Virus record (IMG/VR): IMGVR_UViG_2695420871_000006
Direction: 5' to 3' (one strand)
DNA from: a virus
Lineage: Duplodnaviria > Heunggongvirae > Uroviricota > Caudoviricetes
Length of the DNA stretch: 30,728 nucleotides
Shown here piece by piece: positions 20,533 to 27,922 of this stretch. The position numbers and the translations under genes are program-made. Numbering within the stretch: position 1 is the first letter of the stretch; every line of letters starts with the position of its first letter. The notes beneath the pieces were generated by a model. That model was not told where the DNA came from, made no database searches, and was given only the letters and a program-made list of their open reading frames with translations.

Positions 20533-21864
20533 TTAATCAATTTGTCCTTCCAGCACCTCAAGCATTCCGCCCCGGATATCCGATTTCAGCTTATCCATAT
20601 TGATAACCCGGTAAGCATTCACAATCACATCCAGTTTGTCGGGCTGACGTTTCAGACTGTACGGTGCATTAACGGCAATCTGCACACTGCCATCCTTATT
20701 TTCCACGATATACATCAGATTTTTGTGCCGTTTGTCCCACAGCACCGCTTTTGGCTTTGCCAGCATTGCCGGTAAGCGCCCGAAGTCCTCTGGCATCAGG
20801 GCGATGCCGTCATTCTGATGTTTCACACTGTCTGCATGGAGCACATTTTTACCGCTCATCGCCAGCAGGCGGGCCGGTGGCGTTCCCGTCCGGCTTTCCA
20901 CTGCCTGCGCAATGCTTTCAGTCATAAAGCCCAGCGTGCGGATATCGTTACCACCTCGCCGGGTCTGCATGATGTTTTTTGCCCAGATGCGGAACGCCAG
21001 CTGCCGCTCCGGGCTGTTGTTCATCTCCTGAACCACCATTTCCCGTAACGCCGGGCTTTTCACCTCGATCAGTTTGCGGATCAGCGCCTGGTCTGTGCCG
21101 AACGCTGCCGAGCCGGGGTTATATGACCAGCCCACATCCGGTGTCATGGTTCTGGTGCCATCTGAATATGTGGTCACCGGCATTTCTCTGACTTCTCCGG
21201 TCTGTTTATCCACGCCAGCCTCAACATTGCGGGTGGAGAGATGATCCTCACCGGATGAAACGGATAACCCCATTGCATCCAGACGAGCCTGAGACAATGG
21301 CCGCACACGGCAGCGGCAGTTCCAGCCATTAGGTGGGTAGTGTGTTTTCCAGAACGGATCGTCATAGCGGAATACCAGACCGTTAAGGGCGGAATGCGAC
21401 GGGCGGGTACGGCTGTCCATGACCGCCACATACTGCCAGAACGGATGCGTGTCCGTGTTGTTCATCATCTGCGTGTAACGCCCGGCATTGTAAGCCACCC
21501 GGGTGTTCACGTTGTAAATCAGCGCCAGACGACGGGGACTGCCCAGTTGCACTTCTTCCGCGTTACCGTCGCTGTCCACCACAATCTGCTTTCCCCACCA
21601 TCCCAGCTTTTGCAGGCGTGGCGTCAGCGTGCGGATAAATGCTTTCTGTGAAATTCCCTCATCAATGGCCCGCTGCACTTCGGCCTGTAACGTGGTCACT
21701 ACATCCAGGCGTGCCGCTTTTGCTGCCGTGAATGAGCGGGCATGAACATCCGCGGCTGTTTCGAACCAGTTCCAGCTGATATGCGCCCCTTTGGCGCGGA
21801 AGTATGCCACCGTCTCTTTTGAGGGAAGCGTGGCGGCATAACCTAAATCAATCTCCTGAGCCAT
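20533..21864 (-). CDS. Head morphogenesis protein (Mu F-like)
   Basis: 443 aa downstream of the portal. Confidence 0.8.
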   Translation of the reverse strand: MAQEIDLGYAATLPSKETVAYFRAKGAHISWNWFETAADVHARSFTAAKAARLDVVTTLQAEVQRAIDEGISQKAFIRTLTPRLQKLGWWGKQIVVDSDGNAEEVQLGSPRRLALIYNVNTRVAYNAGRYTQMMNNTDTHPFWQYVAVMDSRTRPSHSALNGLVFRYDDPFWKTHYPPNGWNCRCRVRPLSQARLDAMGLSVSSGEDHLSTRNVEAGVDKQTGEVREMPVTTYSDGTRTMTPDVGWSYNPGSAAFGTDQALIRKLIEVKSPALREMVVQEMNNSPERQLAFRIWAKNIMQTRRGGNDIRTLGFMTESIAQAVESRTGTPPARLLAMSGKNVLHADSVKHQNDGIALMPEDFGRLPAMLAKPKAVLWDKRHKNLMYIVENKDGSVQIAVNAPYSLKRQPDKLDVIVNAYRVINMDKLKSDIRGGMLEVLEGQID

Positions 21865-23437
21865 CCAGCATCCCCTTCATTTCCGCAGCAAACATGGCAT
21901 CACTGAGCAGCGTCATCAGGCGGGAATCATCCATTTCACGATAAAGGGCAGGCAGGTCTGCCAGCGCATCCGCCAGCCCCCGCGTTCTGATGGCATCAAT
22001 GACCGGCTCCAGTACCGGGTCGATGGCCTCCTGTAAGCGGCGGGCAGGCACCGCGTCCCCCATATCATCCAGTTCATCACGCGGCGTGCTTTTCGCTTCC
22101 GGCAGTCTGGCTGACAGCGCCGTCTGCTCTGTTTTTTCCTGTTTTTCCGGTGGTGTTTCCCTGTCGGTCTGAGCCGGTTCATTGCCACTCTGACGGACAC
22201 GGAATATGGCTTCACCGGGCGTGGGCTGCGGAATACCGGTCTGCTCACGTATCCAGGGATCAGAAATATCCATCCCCGTACTGAGCTGCATCACCGCACT
22301 GGTGATTTTGGTGATATCACCTGGTTCTTTTGTCTGGAAGCAGATACGTGGCAGACGGCGGATATCAATAGTGTGCGTGGTGTTCAGGGCGTACAGCGGA
22401 TACACCAGATCGCGGTTCAGGGTTGCAGCCAGCTGTCGTAAATCAGAATCCCTGATTTCCCGGCGCACCTCGTTATGTACCTCACCCAGTGAGCGCGCGC
22501 CTTTGTCTCCGGCTTCCGTGGTCAGCGTGCCGCCGAGTATTGCTTTGGAGATGGAACGCTCCCCCCACGAAATCATGGTTTCAAACGGATCGGCCTGACC
22601 GTTCGCTGCCGCCTGAAACTCCAGCGACATCCCGGCCGGGATGATCCCGCCTGTACGTCGCCCGATATCCATCACCGCCCGCATCAGGGCACTTTTCTGC
22701 TCCGGTGTTGCCCCGGACGGGTATTTCCCGACCTTCATCGGCAGGCCGTACACCTCCAGAAATTCCGCCAGATCGCGCACGGAATAGTTTTTGAAAATGA
22801 ACGGCCAGATAAGCGTCCGGACAAGCCCGGTTGCACCACCGTAACCGGTGCGTGAACGCGACTGATGCACTATCCAGCCAAAGGGCTGAAACGCCACCCC
22901 GGAATGGCTGCCGTCACGCAGCCGCAGTTCGCTCAAATCATCCGGGTTAAGGCAGAAATGCCCGCTGTCACGCCAGCGGATGGCGCGGATGATGTGCATT
23001 TTACCGAGCATCCCGTGCTCAATTTCCATGCAGGAATAGCCCTTCAGGATGGCATCCGTGGCGTCAAACAGCATGGCATCAAACCAGTCTGCGGAATGCA
23101 GATATTCGTCGAGCATTTCCGCGTCCTTTTTCTCATTCGCGCTGGCGTTCGGTGGCGGCTCAATACTCCATGGCACCCCCTGAATGGCAAGACGTCGCTT
23201 GCCCAGCTCCGCAAAAAGGTGGGTGTCCTTTTCTTCAATATCAGCGGCCAGATCGGACTGGGCAATCAGATCGCCACGTTCAGCCCCGCGAAGGCACTGC
23301 GCCGCCCGGTTCGGGGTGATACCCGAAGCCGGATGTTCAATATAACGGCTGGCAATCTGCGGAATATCCAGCGCGGCACTCTGCATCTCCGGGTCAAAGG
23401 AGAAAGGTTTTCCGTCAGTATCAATGATGCGTCCCAC
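21848..23437 (-). CDS. Portal protein (Mu gp29/H-like)
   Basis: 529 aa immediately downstream of the large terminase. Confidence 0.8.
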   Translation of the reverse strand: MGRIIDTDGKPFSFDPEMQSAALDIPQIASRYIEHPASGITPNRAAQCLRGAERGDLIAQSDLAADIEEKDTHLFAELGKRRLAIQGVPWSIEPPPNASANEKKDAEMLDEYLHSADWFDAMLFDATDAILKGYSCMEIEHGMLGKMHIIRAIRWRDSGHFCLNPDDLSELRLRDGSHSGVAFQPFGWIVHQSRSRTGYGGATGLVRTLIWPFIFKNYSVRDLAEFLEVYGLPMKVGKYPSGATPEQKSALMRAVMDIGRRTGGIIPAGMSLEFQAAANGQADPFETMISWGERSISKAILGGTLTTEAGDKGARSLGEVHNEVRREIRDSDLRQLAATLNRDLVYPLYALNTTHTIDIRRLPRICFQTKEPGDITKITSAVMQLSTGMDISDPWIREQTGIPQPTPGEAIFRVRQSGNEPAQTDRETPPEKQEKTEQTALSARLPEAKSTPRDELDDMGDAVPARRLQEAIDPVLEPVIDAIRTRGLADALADLPALYREMDDSRLMTLLSDAMFAAEMKGMLDGSGD

Positions 23438-25101
23438 TACCAGCCCCCCCGATCAAATTCATGATATGCCTCATCGTCATCACGATAACCGCCCTCCATT
23501 GCCCGCGACCGCTCCGGTAGCGCCTGACAGGCTGATTCATCCAGGATGAAGCCCTCCATGTATGACGCCCGGTTTGCCATACAGAGCGCCACGGCAAAAT
23601 CACCATGGCGGCGGGCGTTCGCAGCCGTTGCGTTCTGGTCCTTCGTGCGCCCCTTGTCGATTTGCGGGATACCATTCACTACCTTCACATGGCGCAAATC
23701 ATCAAGCGTGGTCTGATGGCGGGCGACGAGGATATTCTGATCTTCAAACTCGGCTTTCAGTTTTGGCATCCACTCGCCGTACCACTTCGGCGACAACATC
23801 ACGCAGTCGATGATGTCCGGGCCAAAGGCCAGCAGTGCGGCCTCTGCCAGATAGCCGCCGTTACCGGTGGCGTCGAACGCCGCACCGACCAGCGCCGGAA
23901 CGCGGGTCAGGATGTACATCATCACCTGTTCCTGCTGGGCATACGGCAGGTTGCGCAGCTCCACGCGAAACACCTCGCGCTTTGCCAGGGATTCGGTGAT
24001 TTCCAGCAGCACAAAGCAGGACAGGTCACCGGTGCGGGCAAAGTCTTCCCCGAAGCTGAAGCGGGAACGGGGATTTAATTTCTCTAAAAGCGGTTTTAAA
24101 TGTTCTTCACACCAGGTTAAAACTTCCGATTCACGCAGCCATGCGGCACGGCTGATGAAGTTGTCCGGGGCTTCAAACGTCAGAATCGGGATGTCGCGGA
24201 TCATCGCCATTTCAATAAGCGCGTGGGGGATATAGGCACCGCCGGATTTTTTCGGGATACAGCCGTATTCCTCGTCGGCATCCTCACGGGTCGGGGCGTT
24301 TTTGTAGAGATCATCACGCCATTTCTGCTCGCTTTCCGGTGACCATTCCTGATCGGTGACGTAACAGATACGACGGTACAGCCCGTCCGCAATGGCATCA
24401 TCCAGGGTTATGCGGTGGACGCTGTAATCCTTGCGCCCCTCGCGGGCTTCCTGAATGTACTGATTAAACAGATTATCGACGCCGTTATGCGTGGAGATAA
24501 TACGCACGCGCGCGCCCCACATAGTGAGCGCCATTGCCGCCTTGAGAAGTTCATCCAGCGACTCGTGGAACGCGGCTTCATCAATCACCACATCCCCCTG
24601 AAGGCCGCGCAGGTTTGACGGACGGGAAGACAATGCCTGAATTTTGAATCCACTGTTCGGAAAGCGGATCATGTAGGTCAAAATTTCTTCTTTTTTATCC
24701 CGATCCCAGAATGTCTGCTCATACACATCAGCATCTGCCAGCTGGTTAAAGGCACGGGAGAACAGCGCGCAGGCAGAAATATATTCCAGCGCCATCTCCT
24801 GTTTTGACCCCACATAAAACACATTGCGGCCACCACGCCGCTTCGGTTTTGCAGCGGTAATGACGTTACGCCCGGCTTCCGCCCAGGTAAGCCCGGTGCG
24901 GCGGGATTTTTCCGCGATGCAGACCTGACTTTCATCCGCAAACCAGCGGGCCTGATAATCCAGAAACACCGGCATATCACCGGGCAAATCAAGGCTGTCC
25001 GGCACATCCACGCCCAGCAGGGCTTTTTCACCGGACAGATCAATTTTGCGGGGAGGCGTCATTTGTATCAGTGAAGGAGACTTTTCTTTGGCTTTGTTCA
25101 T
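23437..25101 (-). CDS. Terminase large subunit (Mu gp28-like)
   Basis: 554 aa; synteny; ATGA overlap with the upstream small gene. Confidence 0.85.
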   Translation of the reverse strand: MNKAKEKSPSLIQMTPPRKIDLSGEKALLGVDVPDSLDLPGDMPVFLDYQARWFADESQVCIAEKSRRTGLTWAEAGRNVITAAKPKRRGGRNVFYVGSKQEMALEYISACALFSRAFNQLADADVYEQTFWDRDKKEEILTYMIRFPNSGFKIQALSSRPSNLRGLQGDVVIDEAAFHESLDELLKAAMALTMWGARVRIISTHNGVDNLFNQYIQEAREGRKDYSVHRITLDDAIADGLYRRICYVTDQEWSPESEQKWRDDLYKNAPTREDADEEYGCIPKKSGGAYIPHALIEMAMIRDIPILTFEAPDNFISRAAWLRESEVLTWCEEHLKPLLEKLNPRSRFSFGEDFARTGDLSCFVLLEITESLAKREVFRVELRNLPYAQQEQVMMYILTRVPALVGAAFDATGNGGYLAEAALLAFGPDIIDCVMLSPKWYGEWMPKLKAEFEDQNILVARHQTTLDDLRHVKVVNGIPQIDKGRTKDQNATAANARRHGDFAVALCMANRASYMEGFILDESACQALPERSRAMEGGYRDDDEAYHEFDRGGW

Positions 25102-25349
25102 CAGGCTTTACCTGTCAGAATGCTTTTGATTCGGGACTCAAGCTCTTCAGTCATCACGTCCACGCCGCTCAACTCATCAGTGGCAGCCTCTGCCAGCAGC
25201 GAATGCAGTTGTTCCAGGGATATTTCCCCGGCAATGCTGAGTTCAGTCAACTCACGACACGCTTTTATGGTTTCAGGAGGTAACTGTGTTGCAAGACTGA
25301 ATGCCTTCAGATGAGCACTACTCATCAGTGAGCGGTTATCTGTTGCCAT
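25101..25349 (-). CDS. Small protein (82 aa) whose C-terminus is paralogous to the C-terminus of the preceding gp27-like protein
   Basis: AAGAGGTGA SD plus ATG. C-terminus ...TDELSGVDVMTEELESRIKSILTGKA versus gp27-like ...TDELRGVDGMSEQIEFRIRQMLLGKA. Confidence 0.6.
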   Translation of the reverse strand: MATDNRSLMSSAHLKAFSLATQLPPETIKACRELTELSIAGEISLEQLHSLLAEAATDELSGVDVMTEELESRIKSILTGKA

Positions 25350-25359
25350 GATTCACCTC

Positions 25360-25941
25360 TTATGCCTTACCCAGCAGCATCTGCCTGATACGGAATTCGA
25401 TCTGCTCGCTCATGCCATCCACGCCGCGTAACTCGTCGGTGACCGCGTTCGCCATCTCTTCAGCAAATGCGGCCCGGATTTCTTTTTCACGCTTAATACT
25501 GCGCTCGGCGGCACTTTCTGCACGCTGTGCCGACAGGAGGATGTCCTTGATGAGGCGCATATCCACATCGCTGTCGCTGTTCAGGGATTCGGTGGCGGCA
25601 CGCAGACGGCGGTACATCAGGGCACGGGACATCTCCAGAATCAGTGCCGTGGTTTCACCGGTCGGCTTATCCCCCAGTTCGGCCATCATGGCTTTTGTCT
25701 GCTCGCGTAAATCACGCAGATTACGGGCAATCAGCTCATTACGGGAGGCTTCCCGGCTGATGGCCGCCGGTGAAAGCTGCTGCTCTTCCGGCAGGCCTGC
25801 CTCACGGATCAGACGGTTGATTTCCTCGCGGATCTGGACCTGCGTCAGGCGTTTTTCACGCAGCATTTCCAGCAGCGGCTTACGGATGCTGTCGGGGAGC
25901 AAATCCACCTTGCGTACACGGCCACGCGTCGGCTTATCCAT
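25360..25941 (-). CDS. Mu gp27-like DNA-binding protein (putative small terminase subunit)
   Basis: 193 aa upstream of the large terminase; basic N-terminus. Confidence 0.7.
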   Translation of the reverse strand: MDKPTRGRVRKVDLLPDSIRKPLLEMLREKRLTQVQIREEINRLIREAGLPEEQQLSPAAISREASRNELIARNLRDLREQTKAMMAELGDKPTGETTALILEMSRALMYRRLRAATESLNSDSDVDMRLIKDILLSAQRAESAAERSIKREKEIRAAFAEEMANAVTDELRGVDGMSEQIEFRIRQMLLGKA

Positions 25942-25943
25942 CG

Positions 25944-26234
25944 TTACCCCCTTGCGCGTGGTTTCTTCACACCCGGAACAGTGGCACGACCTTCCGCCAC
26001 ATCCTGACCCCGGCCGGTCAGTTCAGCGATGAAATAACCGTTAACAAGCGTGCGCTTACGCACCAGTCCCTGCTCAGCAAGCCAGGCAATGTGGGTGTGA
26101 ACGGTGTCGCGGGACACGCGGTGGCCGTAATCATCCAGGCAGTCCTGAAGCACGGATTCGCCCAGTTCGCCGTTGTAATCCGCCAGCGACCGCAGAATGA
26201 CAAGACGCTGATCTTCAGTAATGAAATCACTCAT
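25944..26234 (-). CDS. Mu gp26-like small protein (putative winged-helix)
   Basis: 96 aa; AAGGAAAAAA SD; synteny. Confidence 0.55.
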   Translation of the reverse strand: MSDFITEDQRLVILRSLADYNGELGESVLQDCLDDYGHRVSRDTVHTHIAWLAEQGLVRKRTLVNGYFIAELTGRGQDVAEGRATVPGVKKPRARG

Positions 26235-26538
26235 TGTGTTTTTTCCTTACAGCCTGCTCCAGCAGCAGTTCGTTCTGGTGGGAGACGGATTTCAGGGTGG
26301 CATTGGTGGCCTTAAGCTCACCGCGCAGGGTGGTGATTTCGATATTGAGTCTGTTCACCTCCTGCTGCGTGGGCAGGCCGGAAATCCGGCTCTCCACCCG
26401 CTCAACCCGGTCGGAGAGTTTTTCAAAGGCCTCGCGGGGGACAAAGGTTTTGCGCATCAGCGCCATAAAGATCCCCCCGGCCGTGGCTGTTGCCGACAGG
26501 ATCGGCACGACATAATCTTTAACGATGCTGACCCACAT
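26227..26538 (-). CDS. Mu gp25-like membrane protein (N-terminal TM helix plus coiled coil); possible lysis regulator
   Basis: TM segment VVPILSATATAGGIFMALM; position in the lysis/packaging junction. Confidence 0.6.
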   Translation of the reverse strand: MWVSIVKDYVVPILSATATAGGIFMALMRKTFVPREAFEKLSDRVERVESRISGLPTQQEVNRLNIEITTLRGELKATNATLKSVSHQNELLLEQAVRKKHNE

Positions 26539-26746
26539 GACCGGCCTCCATGATGCTCTGGCAGTTCACACAACGGATGGCATCCGGCACGGCAACCAGA
26601 CGGGCGGCCGGAATGTCACCCCCGCAGTCTGCGCATACACGCCTGCCCGGAGTCTCCTCCACCCGGCACTTACGTGTCAGCCGGTCACAAAGGGCGCGTT
26701 CTGTTGCCCGCTCCACGACTGCCTGAGCACAATCTGAATCATCCAT
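26519..26746 (-). CDS. TraR/DksA-family C4 zinc-finger protein (75 aa from ATG 26744-26746)
   Basis: CADC-x17-CVNC spacing is typical of the DksA/TraR zinc finger. AAGGAAAAAGG SD before the internal ATG. Confidence 0.7.
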   Translation of the reverse strand: MDDSDCAQAVVERATERALCDRLTRKCRVEETPGRRVCADCGGDIPAARLVAVPDAIRCVNCQSIMEAGHVGQHR

Positions 26747-26756
26747 ACCTTTTTCC

Positions 26757-27128
26757 TTACTTCGTCTTTCCTGCCGGAACAGCAGTCGTTCCGGCCATAT
26801 CAGTAAATTCATGCTGTCGCTGTGCCTCCAGACGGCGGATGCTGGCCTTGTCCACGTTGCAGTTCTTAATCACCGCCAGCAGTTGCAGGTTGTAAGTGAC
26901 CGATGCGCCAAACGTGAACGGCTGCGGCACAGGAGGAACCAGACAGTCAGCCAGCCATTCAGCGGGGATCGGCACCGGCTTCACCGGCACGTATTTCACA
27001 GACGGCCCGCCGCACCCGGTCAGCCACATCATCAGGCACAGGAACAGAGGCCGCAGGCACCGTTGCCAGCGACCGGCGGACAATGCTCTGCTGTTCCTCG
27101 CTGTGCTGCATGTTCTGCTGTTTTTCAT
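26757..27128 (-). CDS. o-spanin (Rz1-like outer-membrane lipoprotein), overlapping the i-spanin gene
   Basis: Lipobox LTGC followed by the Pro-rich mature region GGPSVKYVPVKPVPIPAEW. Start assigned to ATG 27126-27128. Confidence 0.6.
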   Translation of the reverse strand: MKNSRTCSTARNSRALSAGRWQRCLRPLFLCLMMWLTGCGGPSVKYVPVKPVPIPAEWLADCLVPPVPQPFTFGASVTYNLQLLAVIKNCNVDKASIRRLEAQRQHEFTDMAGTTAVPAGKTK

Positions 27129-27421: not shown

Positions 27422-27922
27422 TCAGACTTTCGGCAAATCGTAGCGACACAACCATTCATCCGCCGAACGGCGGGCCTCAAGACCGGGGAGTTTTACCCCC
27501 TTTGAATAAATCCAGCGGATATACTGCTTACAGGACCCGGGCATCTGCCCGGCATTGATAAGGCGCAGGAGCGTGGAGTTGCGAAAGTTCGTTTCACCGG
27601 CCCAGAAAATCCAGGAGGCCAGCGCCACCGTCTGACCACGGGTAAGCGGCACCTGAACATGACGATCGATAGCCGCAAAGGCCCATTTCATGTCCTTTTC
27701 CAGCAGCTCCAGACATTCTTCATCAGTTTTTGTCATCCCCGGTTTCACATCCGGGCCGGTATGGCCGTAACAGATGGTGGGGGTGCCGGTGGGATCAATG
27801 TACGTGGTGTTTTCTTTCCCTTCCCAGTAGCCGGTGTAGTGCGTGGCAATGGTGAACGTCCCGGCTCCGGCCAGAACAAGGGCAATCAGCTTTTTACGCA
27901 GGGGTGCGGGGAGTTTTGGCAT
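27422..27922 (-). CDS. lys: SAR endolysin (T4-lysozyme-like, GH24)
   Basis: N-terminal Gly/Ala-rich signal-anchor LIALVLAGAGTFTIA. Catalytic E-x8-D-x5-T in YWEGKENTTYIDPTGTPT. Confidence 0.85.
   Translation of the reverse strand: MPKLPAPLRKKLIALVLAGAGTFTIATHYTGYWEGKENTTYIDPTGTPTICYGHTGPDVKPGMTKTDEECLELLEKDMKWAFAAIDRHVQVPLTRGQTVALASWIFWAGETNFRNSTLLRLINAGQMPGSCKQYIRWIYSKGVKLPGLEARRSADEWLCRYDLPKV

Follow-up and report, generated by a model that had tools for sequence, protein, structure and literature searches.

A Mu-like prophage reading frame between the terminase genes combines a small junction gene with a gp27-type C-terminus

What is the small open reading frame (ORF) that separates the two terminase genes of a Mu-like prophage, and why does its product end in the same way as the small terminase subunit encoded just upstream? 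The question is raised by IMG/VR record IMGVR_UViG_2695420871_000006, a stretch of 30,728 nucleotides (nt) that was analyzed as a whole and is referred to here as the window. Its minus strand, on which all features described below are located, carries the late region of a Mu-like prophage of Escherichia coli. A gp27-like small terminase subunit of 193 amino acids (25360-25941), a frame of 82 amino acids (ORF82; 25101-25349) and the large terminase subunit TerL of 554 amino acids, a homologue of Mu gp28 (23437-25101), follow one another. An initial annotation, made from the letters of the window, had pointed to the 82- and 193-residue proteins and the likeness of their C-termini, and the coordinates and frames of both were confirmed. 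ORF82 is a chimera of an N-terminal module from a family of small junction genes (N-module; codons 1-54, 25188-25349) and a captured copy of a gp27-type C-terminus (tail-2; codons 55-82, AATDELSGVDVMTEELESRIKSILTGKA, 25104-25187). With a probability of roughly 0.55, we consider that recombination made this chimera, that its translation relays ribosomes to TerL and that its tail is a slowly decaying passenger.

The similarity between the two C-termini carries the first part of this answer. Residues 52-82 of ORF82 align without gaps to residues 163-193 of the gp27-like protein (18/31 identical, 24/31 similar; BLASTP E 2e-10), which are encoded by the last 31 codons of its gene (tail-1; MANAVTDELRGVDGMSEQIEFRIRQMLLGKA, 25363-25455). 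When the two protein families are compared with hhalign, only residues 50-82 and 161-193 align (probability 96%, E 1.4e-9), and the gp27 tail also matches the PHROG profile of ORF82 relatives (E 6e-8). At the nucleotide level, the 96-nt 3' ends of both genes match at 62/96 positions in register. As the repeat search had not reported the tail pair at the settings used, the pair was tested directly by shuffling: a match of 62/96 was reached in 0/20,000 shuffles, with a shuffle maximum of 44. Moreover, when the ORF82 3' end was compared with all 61,264 sequence windows from both strands, the 3' end of gp27 alone scored highest (next best 47). The pairwise alignment of the two tail regions that the initial annotation had suggested as a check thus returns a match far beyond chance. 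Its wording of "near-identical" motifs of about 26 residues is right as to homology and overstated as to degree, given that tail-1 and tail-2 share 58% of their amino acids and 65% of their nucleotides. The synonymous sites are saturated, with a proportion of synonymous differences (pS) of 0.76; therefore, the tails in the window do not stem from a recent duplication in place.

The remainder of ORF82 has another source. Outside the tail, neither BLASTP nor hhalign of the families detects similarity to gp27, which rules out a duplication of the whole gp27 gene, since the tail alone aligns. ORF82 is a full-length match to the 82-position profile phrog_30922 (E 2.6e-51, residues 2-82 on positions 2-82), so the family is already catalogued, with its function unassigned and the protein uncharacterized; in the literature, we found no paper noting a small-terminase tail on this family. 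Querying 1.84 billion cluster representatives exhaustively with HMMER retrieved a 67-residue E. coli protein without the tail (ORF67; P0011, on contig L006; E 5.9e-7, 57% identity), whose first ~55 residues, corresponding to the N-module, share 54-57% identity with ORF82. A more distant relation was found in Salmonella, as a profile of ORF82 and ORF67 aligned with 17 Salmonella proteins of 65 residues (ORF65) over 47 columns at 32% identity, a marginal score (hhalign probability 75%, E 2.5e-5). On the basis of this score and their common position, the N-module and ORF65 are probably homologous. All these relatives lack the gp27 tail, which makes the tail a secondary acquisition by a pre-existing small gene.

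The AlphaFold2 (AF2) model of ORF82 was built on an alignment of seven sequences and has a mean predicted local distance difference test score (pLDDT) of 72. It predicts a three-helix unit for the N-module (5-21, 25-39 and 45-60; pLDDT about 76-86), followed by a low-confidence loop at 61-67 (SGVDVMT) and a short, amphipathic C-terminal helix at 68-79. Foldseek returned no match with E<1 for this model in the PDB, and the Pfam scan of ORF82 gave only a sub-threshold chance match to HIGH_NTase1 (E 0.048) and no helix-turn-helix family. Among the sequences retrieved, an 80-residue protein (P0014) carries the first 24 residues of ORF82 fused to unrelated sequence (…GATVVTVRTTEPALVTLYRATGNSTGW…) and is either a further recombinant at the same joint or a chimeric assembly. 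Three low-complexity or repeat proteins from the exhaustive HMMER search (P0012, P0013 and P0015) were disregarded, and so were three IMG/VR matches (L019-L021), chance matches in high-GC actinophage tail genes. A 49-residue sequence (P0008) was not located on any contig.

Is ORF82, then, a second small terminase subunit, as had been suggested from the shared motif? This is not supported. ORF82 resembles Mu gp27, the annotated small terminase subunit of Mu-like phages (Phage_Mu_Gp27, PF11985, DUF3486), in its last ~28-31 residues (DEL-G-D-M-E-LE-RI-IL-GKA) and in a tail stop codon that lies on or next to the TerL start codon. Unlike Mu gp27, it has neither the helix-turn-helix region at the N-terminus nor the long helices in the middle, measures 82 instead of ~190 amino acids, and has three short predicted N-module helices versus three long ones in gp27 (AF2 monomer models). 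There is no match to PF11985 at E<=0.1 or to phrog_426 (profiles of ~173-184 positions), and hhalign of the two families aligns the tail only. No DNA-binding or oligomerization region was detected in ORF82 by Pfam, in the AF2 monomer model or by Foldseek. Small terminase subunits are recognized by a DNA-binding N-terminal helix-turn-helix domain, by a helical core that oligomerizes into a ring, by TerL binding of the C-terminal segment, and by being essential and universally present alongside TerL; ORF82 has no helix-turn-helix domain, is optional and weakly constrained, and carries changes at four conserved tail positions. For annotation purposes, it should not be called a terminase subunit. 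Its place is rather among the small junction ORFs, as it lies between gp27 and TerL with a GAGGTG Shine-Dalgarno sequence (SD) directly after the gp27 stop codon.

The significance of the tail depends on what it does in gp27 itself. The gp27-like protein of the window matches PF11985 (E 3.1e-33) and phrog_426, "terminase small subunit" (E 8.6e-55), is 57% identical to Mu gp27, and has its own tail complete. In comparisons from E. coli to Vibrio and Pseudomonas phages, the C-terminal tail is the best-conserved segment of gp27. For instance, gp27 of Pseudomonas phage JBD25 is only ~32% identical overall, yet its tail reads …RGSDGMSEQLENRIRGILLGKA, and that of Vibrio phage ZX4290 reads …RGVDGMSEQLEDRIRGILLGKA. 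Over the last ~23 residues (RG-DGMSEQLE-RIRGILLGKA), the E. coli tails are 74-83% identical to JBD25 (17/23 for tail-1, 19/23 for form A, a haplotype described below), and the ZX4290 tail is conserved to a similar degree, while the whole gp27 proteins are 31-43% identical (L060:2204-2752, L062:2183-2767 and L005:1817-2392). The tails of Shewanella phage MuM16-1 and Pasteurella phage Pmp9 differ (…ILGIA and …ILGIV, respectively). The AF2 model of gp27 is poor (pLDDT 55) and unfit for a fold search, so that its secondary structure alone was used. Long helices are predicted with low confidence at 58-89, 96-120 and 128-171, and the tail consists of the end of the long helix (to 171), a loop (172-178) and a helix (179-189), the same topology as in the ORF82 tail. 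A sequence search of the PDB with gp27 yielded nothing meaningful, and the literature on Mu gp27/gp28 biochemistry and on DUF3486 nothing specific. In phages lambda and P22, the C-terminus of the small terminase binds the N-terminus of TerL, with P22 residues 140-162 contacting the first 23-58 residues of TerL (PMC9611059). By this analogy and in view of its extreme conservation, the gp27 tail is plausibly, and we think probably, the TerL-binding part of gp27. In this comparison, no part of Mu-type gp27 is more conserved than its last ~25 residues, which are an obvious candidate for the gp27-gp28 contact.

The gp27-tail motif RG-DG(M/I)SE(E/Q)LE-RI(R/K)-(I/V)LLGKA is significantly present in ORF82, but four of its residues (R7, G11, S13 and L25) are replaced. 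These substitutions (R->S, G->V, S->T and L->T at tail positions 7, 11, 13 and 25) affect positions that are invariant or nearly so in ~120 gp27 homologues from E. coli and Salmonella as well as in Mu, Vibrio and Pseudomonas phages.

Where tail-2 came from can be read from related prophages. Four gp27-TerL junction haplotypes (forms A to D) occur among closely related E. coli prophages. In form A, gp27 ends in a tail of its own (tail-A; …AVTDELRGVDGMSEQLESRIKGILLGKA), directly followed by the junction TGATG and a TerL starting MNNAEELSPLL…. Form B, present in the window, comprises gp27 with tail-1 (…SEQIEFRIRQMLLGKA), the SD, ORF82, TGATG and a TerL starting MNKAKEKSPSL…. Form C, found in L006 and five short contigs from sequencing-run assemblies, has gp27 with tail-1, the same SD as form B, the tail-less ORF67, a 120-nt gap and a TerL starting MSKRTGEEKIKPD…. 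Finally, form D (L026 and L031) is like form C with the small ORF cut to its first 11 nt (ATGGCAACAGA) and fused to the sequence just before the TerL start, a deletion scar which shows that a form-C-like ancestor lost the small gene. The SD is kept in form D (L026:3093-3122, also L031), where a 9-codon mini-ORF (MATDWFSYE*) overlaps the TerL start by 8 nt.

Form B is assembled from both sides. To the left, it equals forms C and D: the tail-1 allele of the window is identical in both, and they share with it the SD and 105 nt at the 5' end of the small ORF. To the right, it resembles form A, as tail-2 is nearest to tail-A (21/28 amino acids, 73/93 nt), closer than to tail-1 of the window, and the TerL N-terminus is homologous. 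The gp27 and TerL flanks are 92-98% identical among the forms. The variable first 17 codons of TerL (25051-25101) belong to the same mosaic block as tail-2. The first 17-22 TerL residues are wholly different between junction haplotypes and weakly constrained. From CCCGCAAAATTGATCTG (PRKIDL) onward, the sequence is abruptly conserved again; this motif is kept even in Mu and marks a recombination boundary. At the joint between module and tail, all three sequences read GC(G/A)-NA(C/G)-GC(T/G) (Ala-x-Ala), in which the alignments suggest a possible microhomology, and the indel variants observed there (P0003 and P0004) stay in frame.

ORF82 thus carries a genuine second copy of the gp27 tail, as the initial annotation had supposed, and not one made by simple local duplication, since the N-module belongs to another family and the tail to another junction haplotype. 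Form A as a recent deletion derivative of form B was also rejected, because tail and TerL start differ by 20-35% and the flanks by 2-8%. Recombination between a form C and a form A parent would have given form B, a direction of events that is not proven.

The distribution of ORF82 fits an optional gene. This prophage group is present in 230 of 5,426 complete E. coli genomes, and ORF82 in 25 of those 230, leaving ~89% of the sibling prophages without it. The remaining E. coli prophages lack the 259-bp block, and their gp27 stop codon overlaps the TerL start (form A). All ORF82 relatives in a collection of 5.8 billion proteins are from E. coli (>=80% identity), and the exhaustive HMMER search added only the single 67-residue relative. 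ORF82 occurs on eight IMG/VR contigs and in 0 of 185,579 species-representative genomes (one per species); Mu, D108, SfMu and the other phage records checked do not contain it. The survey of Mu-like genomes that had been proposed for this gene therefore finds it in a minority of E. coli prophages and in neither Mu nor the other Mu-like phages checked. In Mu, Pseudomonas JBD25, Shewanella MuM16-1, Vibrio ZX4290 and Pasteurella Pmp9, gp27 adjoins TerL without ORF82, which makes direct adjacency the general and presumably ancestral state. ORF82 is a dispensable, lineage-restricted accessory gene. Some Salmonella Mu-like prophages have a 65- or 87-residue ORF at the gp27-TerL junction; a GAGGTG SD follows immediately on the gp27 stop, and the stop codon of the ORF overlaps the TerL ATG. 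In other Salmonella prophages, gp27 adjoins TerL. Three such loci are L043:3090-3287, L046:3090-3287 and L045:3090-3353, the last with the 87-residue ORF, which ends in …VGKTS, encoded by GGGTAAAACATCATGA, and resembles a short remnant of a gp27 3' end (GGGTAAR) beside the TerL start.

How could such an insert be tolerated between two packaging genes? The translation signals suggest an answer. A 10-nt spacer (25350-25359) after gp27 holds the ORF82 SD, GAGGTG (25354-25359), 4 nt before the ATG, with an anti-SD duplex of -7.1 kcal/mol, bearing out the strong SD that had been noted initially. Forms C and D and the Salmonella loci have this SD in front of their small ORF, too. At the other end, the ORF82 stop codon overlaps the TerL start by one base. 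The proposed ATGA coupling to the large terminase holds as a stop/start overlap, with the correction that the junction is TGATG (25099-25103; 1-nt overlap at 25101). The TerL start itself pairs only weakly with the anti-SD (-3.7/-3.8 kcal/mol in forms A and B, compared to -11.8 for gp27). This weak SD and the overlap with the upstream stop suggest that most TerL is made by ribosomes that terminate on the upstream ORF and then reinitiate, so that its translation would depend on the coupling. A search of 24800-26400 gave no promoter-like site, and the interval from gp27 to the TerL start contains no terminator-like hairpin. The last gp27 codons and the junction (…GGTAAAGCC-TGATG) are conserved from Pseudomonas to E. 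coli phages.

From these elements, we propose the following history. Recombination in the late (packaging) operon would have joined two alternative gp27-TerL junction types. The left partner would have been form-C-like (gp27 with tail-1, the SD and a small junction gene of ~65 residues) and the right partner form-A-like (a gp27 tail with its stop codon overlapping the start of TerL). At the joint, ~54 codons from the small gene would have come to be read, in frame, into the final 28 codons of a gp27 of the form A type, leaving the stretch for TerL translation initiation (GGTAAAGCC-TGATG) intact. Ribosomes would then start at the ORF82 SD just after the end of gp27, stop on the TerL start codon and pass on to TerL. 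If the last gp27 codons are part of an initiation cassette for TerL, an insert would be viable when fused in frame to that cassette; this would explain both why ORF82 ends in a gp27 tail and why indels at the joint stay in frame. The tail would then be mainly a passenger of the cassette, drifting under relaxed constraint.

Relaxed constraint is what the polymorphism of form B displays. Across 21 loci (nine haplotypes), segregating sites were counted and expressed as the ratio of nonsynonymous to synonymous polymorphism (pN/pS). The gp27 body (22 synonymous, 1 nonsynonymous; pN/pS 0.01) and tail-1 (13 and 1; 0.02) are strongly conserved. The ORF82 N-module (11 and 21; 0.61) is not significantly below neutrality (p=0.125), and tail-2 (6 and 5; 0.26) is (p=0.027). 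TerL codons 1-17 (2 and 5; 0.69) are poorly constrained compared to codons 18-400 (64 and 19; 0.09). Pairwise values are concordant, and ORF82 is 10-50-fold less constrained than gp27. Over the longer separation between ORF82 and ORF67, the ratio of nonsynonymous to synonymous substitution rates (dN/dS) of the N-module is 0.33 (p=0.008 versus neutrality), so that the small gene is coding but weakly constrained. Measured against tail-A, dN/dS is 0.36 for tail-2 and 0.067 for tail-1. ORF82 is intact in 21/21 loci, starting with ATG or GTG throughout and without stops in any of the nine haplotypes, one of which carries a helix-breaking L70P within the predicted tail helix. We infer that ORF82 has no essential function as a protein.

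Several observations weigh against a passive relay with a decaying tail. Tail-2 retains its hydrophobic face (L, I, I, L) and the DEL-G-D and GKA motifs; together with its non-neutral values, both within form B and relative to tail-A, this makes some protein-level function of the tail possible. The chimera has accumulated ~8% synonymous diversity and still no stop codon in 21 loci. The presumed donor, a gp27 ending in a tail-2-like sequence, was found neither in the 5.8-billion-protein collection nor in the complete E. coli genomes, from which it would follow that the four tail changes probably arose after fusion. An opposite direction, with form C derived from form B, is also possible. Finally, the gp27 model is of low quality, and the dependence of TerL on coupling is deduced from sequence alone.

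A tentative alternative, to which we give clearly less credence, is that ORF82 is a working terminase accessory whose tail docks on TerL and modulates, competes with or bridges the gp27-TerL interaction. It might tune the ratio of small to large subunits, delay nuclease activation or compensate for a mismatch between tail-1 and a form-A-type TerL N-terminus. Since the gp27 tail is probably TerL-binding, ORF82 may indeed retain some TerL affinity. The extreme conservation of the tail across distant Mu-like phages and the lambda and P22 precedent agree with this, as does the retention in tail-2 of 21/28 residues of the nearest gp27 tail, including the predicted amphipathic helix 68-79. So do the below-neutral pN/pS of tail-2, the intact frame in all form-B loci with its strong SD and predicted co-translation with TerL, and the inheritance of tail-2 and the TerL N-terminal codons as one block. 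Nonetheless, the four changes at near-invariant positions and L70P speak against it, and the constraint is at least 10 times weaker than on the gp27 tail. The gene is missing from most sibling prophages and related small ORFs do without the tail. Further, TerL codons 1-17 are poorly constrained, unlike a tightly co-evolving interface, and any contact site between Mu gp27 and gp28 is itself putative.

A related and somewhat more doubtful idea is that a small junction gene captured a TerL-docking peptide in a manner resembling exon shuffling. The product would be a third terminase-associated protein, either a decoy that limits or times gp27 binding or an adaptor for a mismatched pair of gp27 tail and TerL. 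Small proteins with such roles exist elsewhere. Rpp of phage-inducible chromosomal islands (PICIs) and Ppi of Staphylococcus aureus pathogenicity islands (SaPIs) are satellite-encoded, retarget or block terminases, and bind the small subunit rather than TerL. In herpesviruses, the small protein pUL33 is a third terminase subunit (PMC9611059). All three are small helical binders of terminase subunits, the role that ORF82 would have if it docked. ORF82 shares neither sequence nor fold similarity with them and is encoded in the packaging operon of the phage itself. A closer parallel may be drawn with the C-terminal TerL-binding peptides of lambda gpNu1 and P22 gp3, which are likewise short, flexible segments encoded just upstream of TerL (PMC9611059). 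In the window, the tail travels with the TerL N-terminal codons as one mosaic block and, unlike in lambda and P22, sits on a non-terminase scaffold. The Mu-type tail has no sequence homology to those peptides, and its binding is presumed by analogy. Should ORF82 prove to bind TerL, nature would have supplied a minimal TerL-binding peptide on a small scaffold, and the phage would be regulating its own packaging motor by peptide mimicry, through a copied partner-binding peptide.

It is very improbable that ORF82 is not expressed as a protein and that its open frame persists by chance in a mosaic joint. Its N-module is indistinguishable from neutral within form B, one variant is frameshifted (P0010) and there is no Pfam or structural match. 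However, the SD is canonical and correctly spaced, start codons are maintained in all loci, stops are absent and indels keep the frame, and the N-module is under purifying selection relative to ORF67. In addition, gene position and SD are conserved in Salmonella, and ORF82 sits in a tightly packed operon where nothing resembling a terminator hairpin separates gp27 from the TerL start. The idea that the gp27 3' end was tandemly duplicated on the spot, leaving ORF82 as a decayed or truncated gp27 copy, is largely refuted. In its favour, the two in-register tail copies lie 259 nt apart on one strand, and tail-A looks like tail-1 over its 5' half (42/48) and like tail-2 over its 3' half (36/45), the pattern that a deletion between repeats would leave. 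However, similarity ends with the tail in BLASTP and profile-profile comparisons, the N-module has tail-less homologues of its own, the tail synonymous sites are saturated while the gp27 and TerL flanks are 92-98% identical among the forms, and gp27 adjoins TerL in Mu and in the relatives checked from Pseudomonas, Vibrio, Shewanella and Pasteurella.

Returning to the recombinant origin with ribosome relay, the locus is a variant of ordinary phage mosaicism, of modest interest and of greater interest only if TerL binding is demonstrated. Sharp identity transitions, alternative cassettes, the form D scar and a partially duplicated gene end are all familiar from mosaic genomes. ORF82 departs from the usual pattern in that what was duplicated and fused in frame to another gene is the best-conserved peptide of an essential protein, one that presumably binds a partner. 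The Salmonella junction ORFs (65 residues, P0136-P0150; 87 residues, L045) and ORF67 resemble it in position and SD, with N-module similarity that is clear for ORF67 and marginal for ORF65, and differ in having no gp27 tail, ORF67 being followed by the 120-nt untranslated gap. If the tail is a relic, it provides a clean, datable example of mosaic recombination. Joints within a gene end that doubles as the initiation region of the next gene can duplicate that end and yield in-frame chimeric ORFs.

The surrounding genes belong to the late region. The lysozyme gene (27422-27922) comes first, followed by the spanin genes, a TraR/DksA zinc-finger gene, a DUF2730 protein gene (26227-26538) and a gp26-like protein gene (25944-26234), which precedes gp27; the DUF935/Mu portal gene (21848-23437) comes after TerL. 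The order is identical in the RefSeq entry of E. coli STEC299 (98.7% identical), where the 82-residue product is labelled hypothetical protein. An Rfam scan of the whole window gave no match. TerL matches phrog_2, "terminase large subunit" (E 5.8e-43), and is syntenic with Mu gp28, while a Pfam-A scan gave no match at E<=0.1. It is labelled "hypothetical protein" in RefSeq E. coli genomes, and Mu gp28 carries the label "putative portal protein" in NC_000929. The TraR/DksA ORF (26519-26812) counts 97 amino acids from its first possible start, compared to the 75 annotated in relatives, and overlaps the Rz1-like lysC region, so that its true start is uncertain. In one contig from a public sequencing run, the gp26-like protein and gp27 are fused in frame (P0017, 291 amino acids). 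The two genes are 2 nt apart in the window (25942-25943), and the fusion is either a real variant or an assembly error. Mechanical ORF listing places the portal start at 23437, a GTG that shares one base with the TerL stop codon and is preceded by a G-rich SD (-10.1 kcal/mol). If this start is right, gp27, ORF82, TerL and portal are all linked by 1-nt overlaps or the 10-nt spacer.

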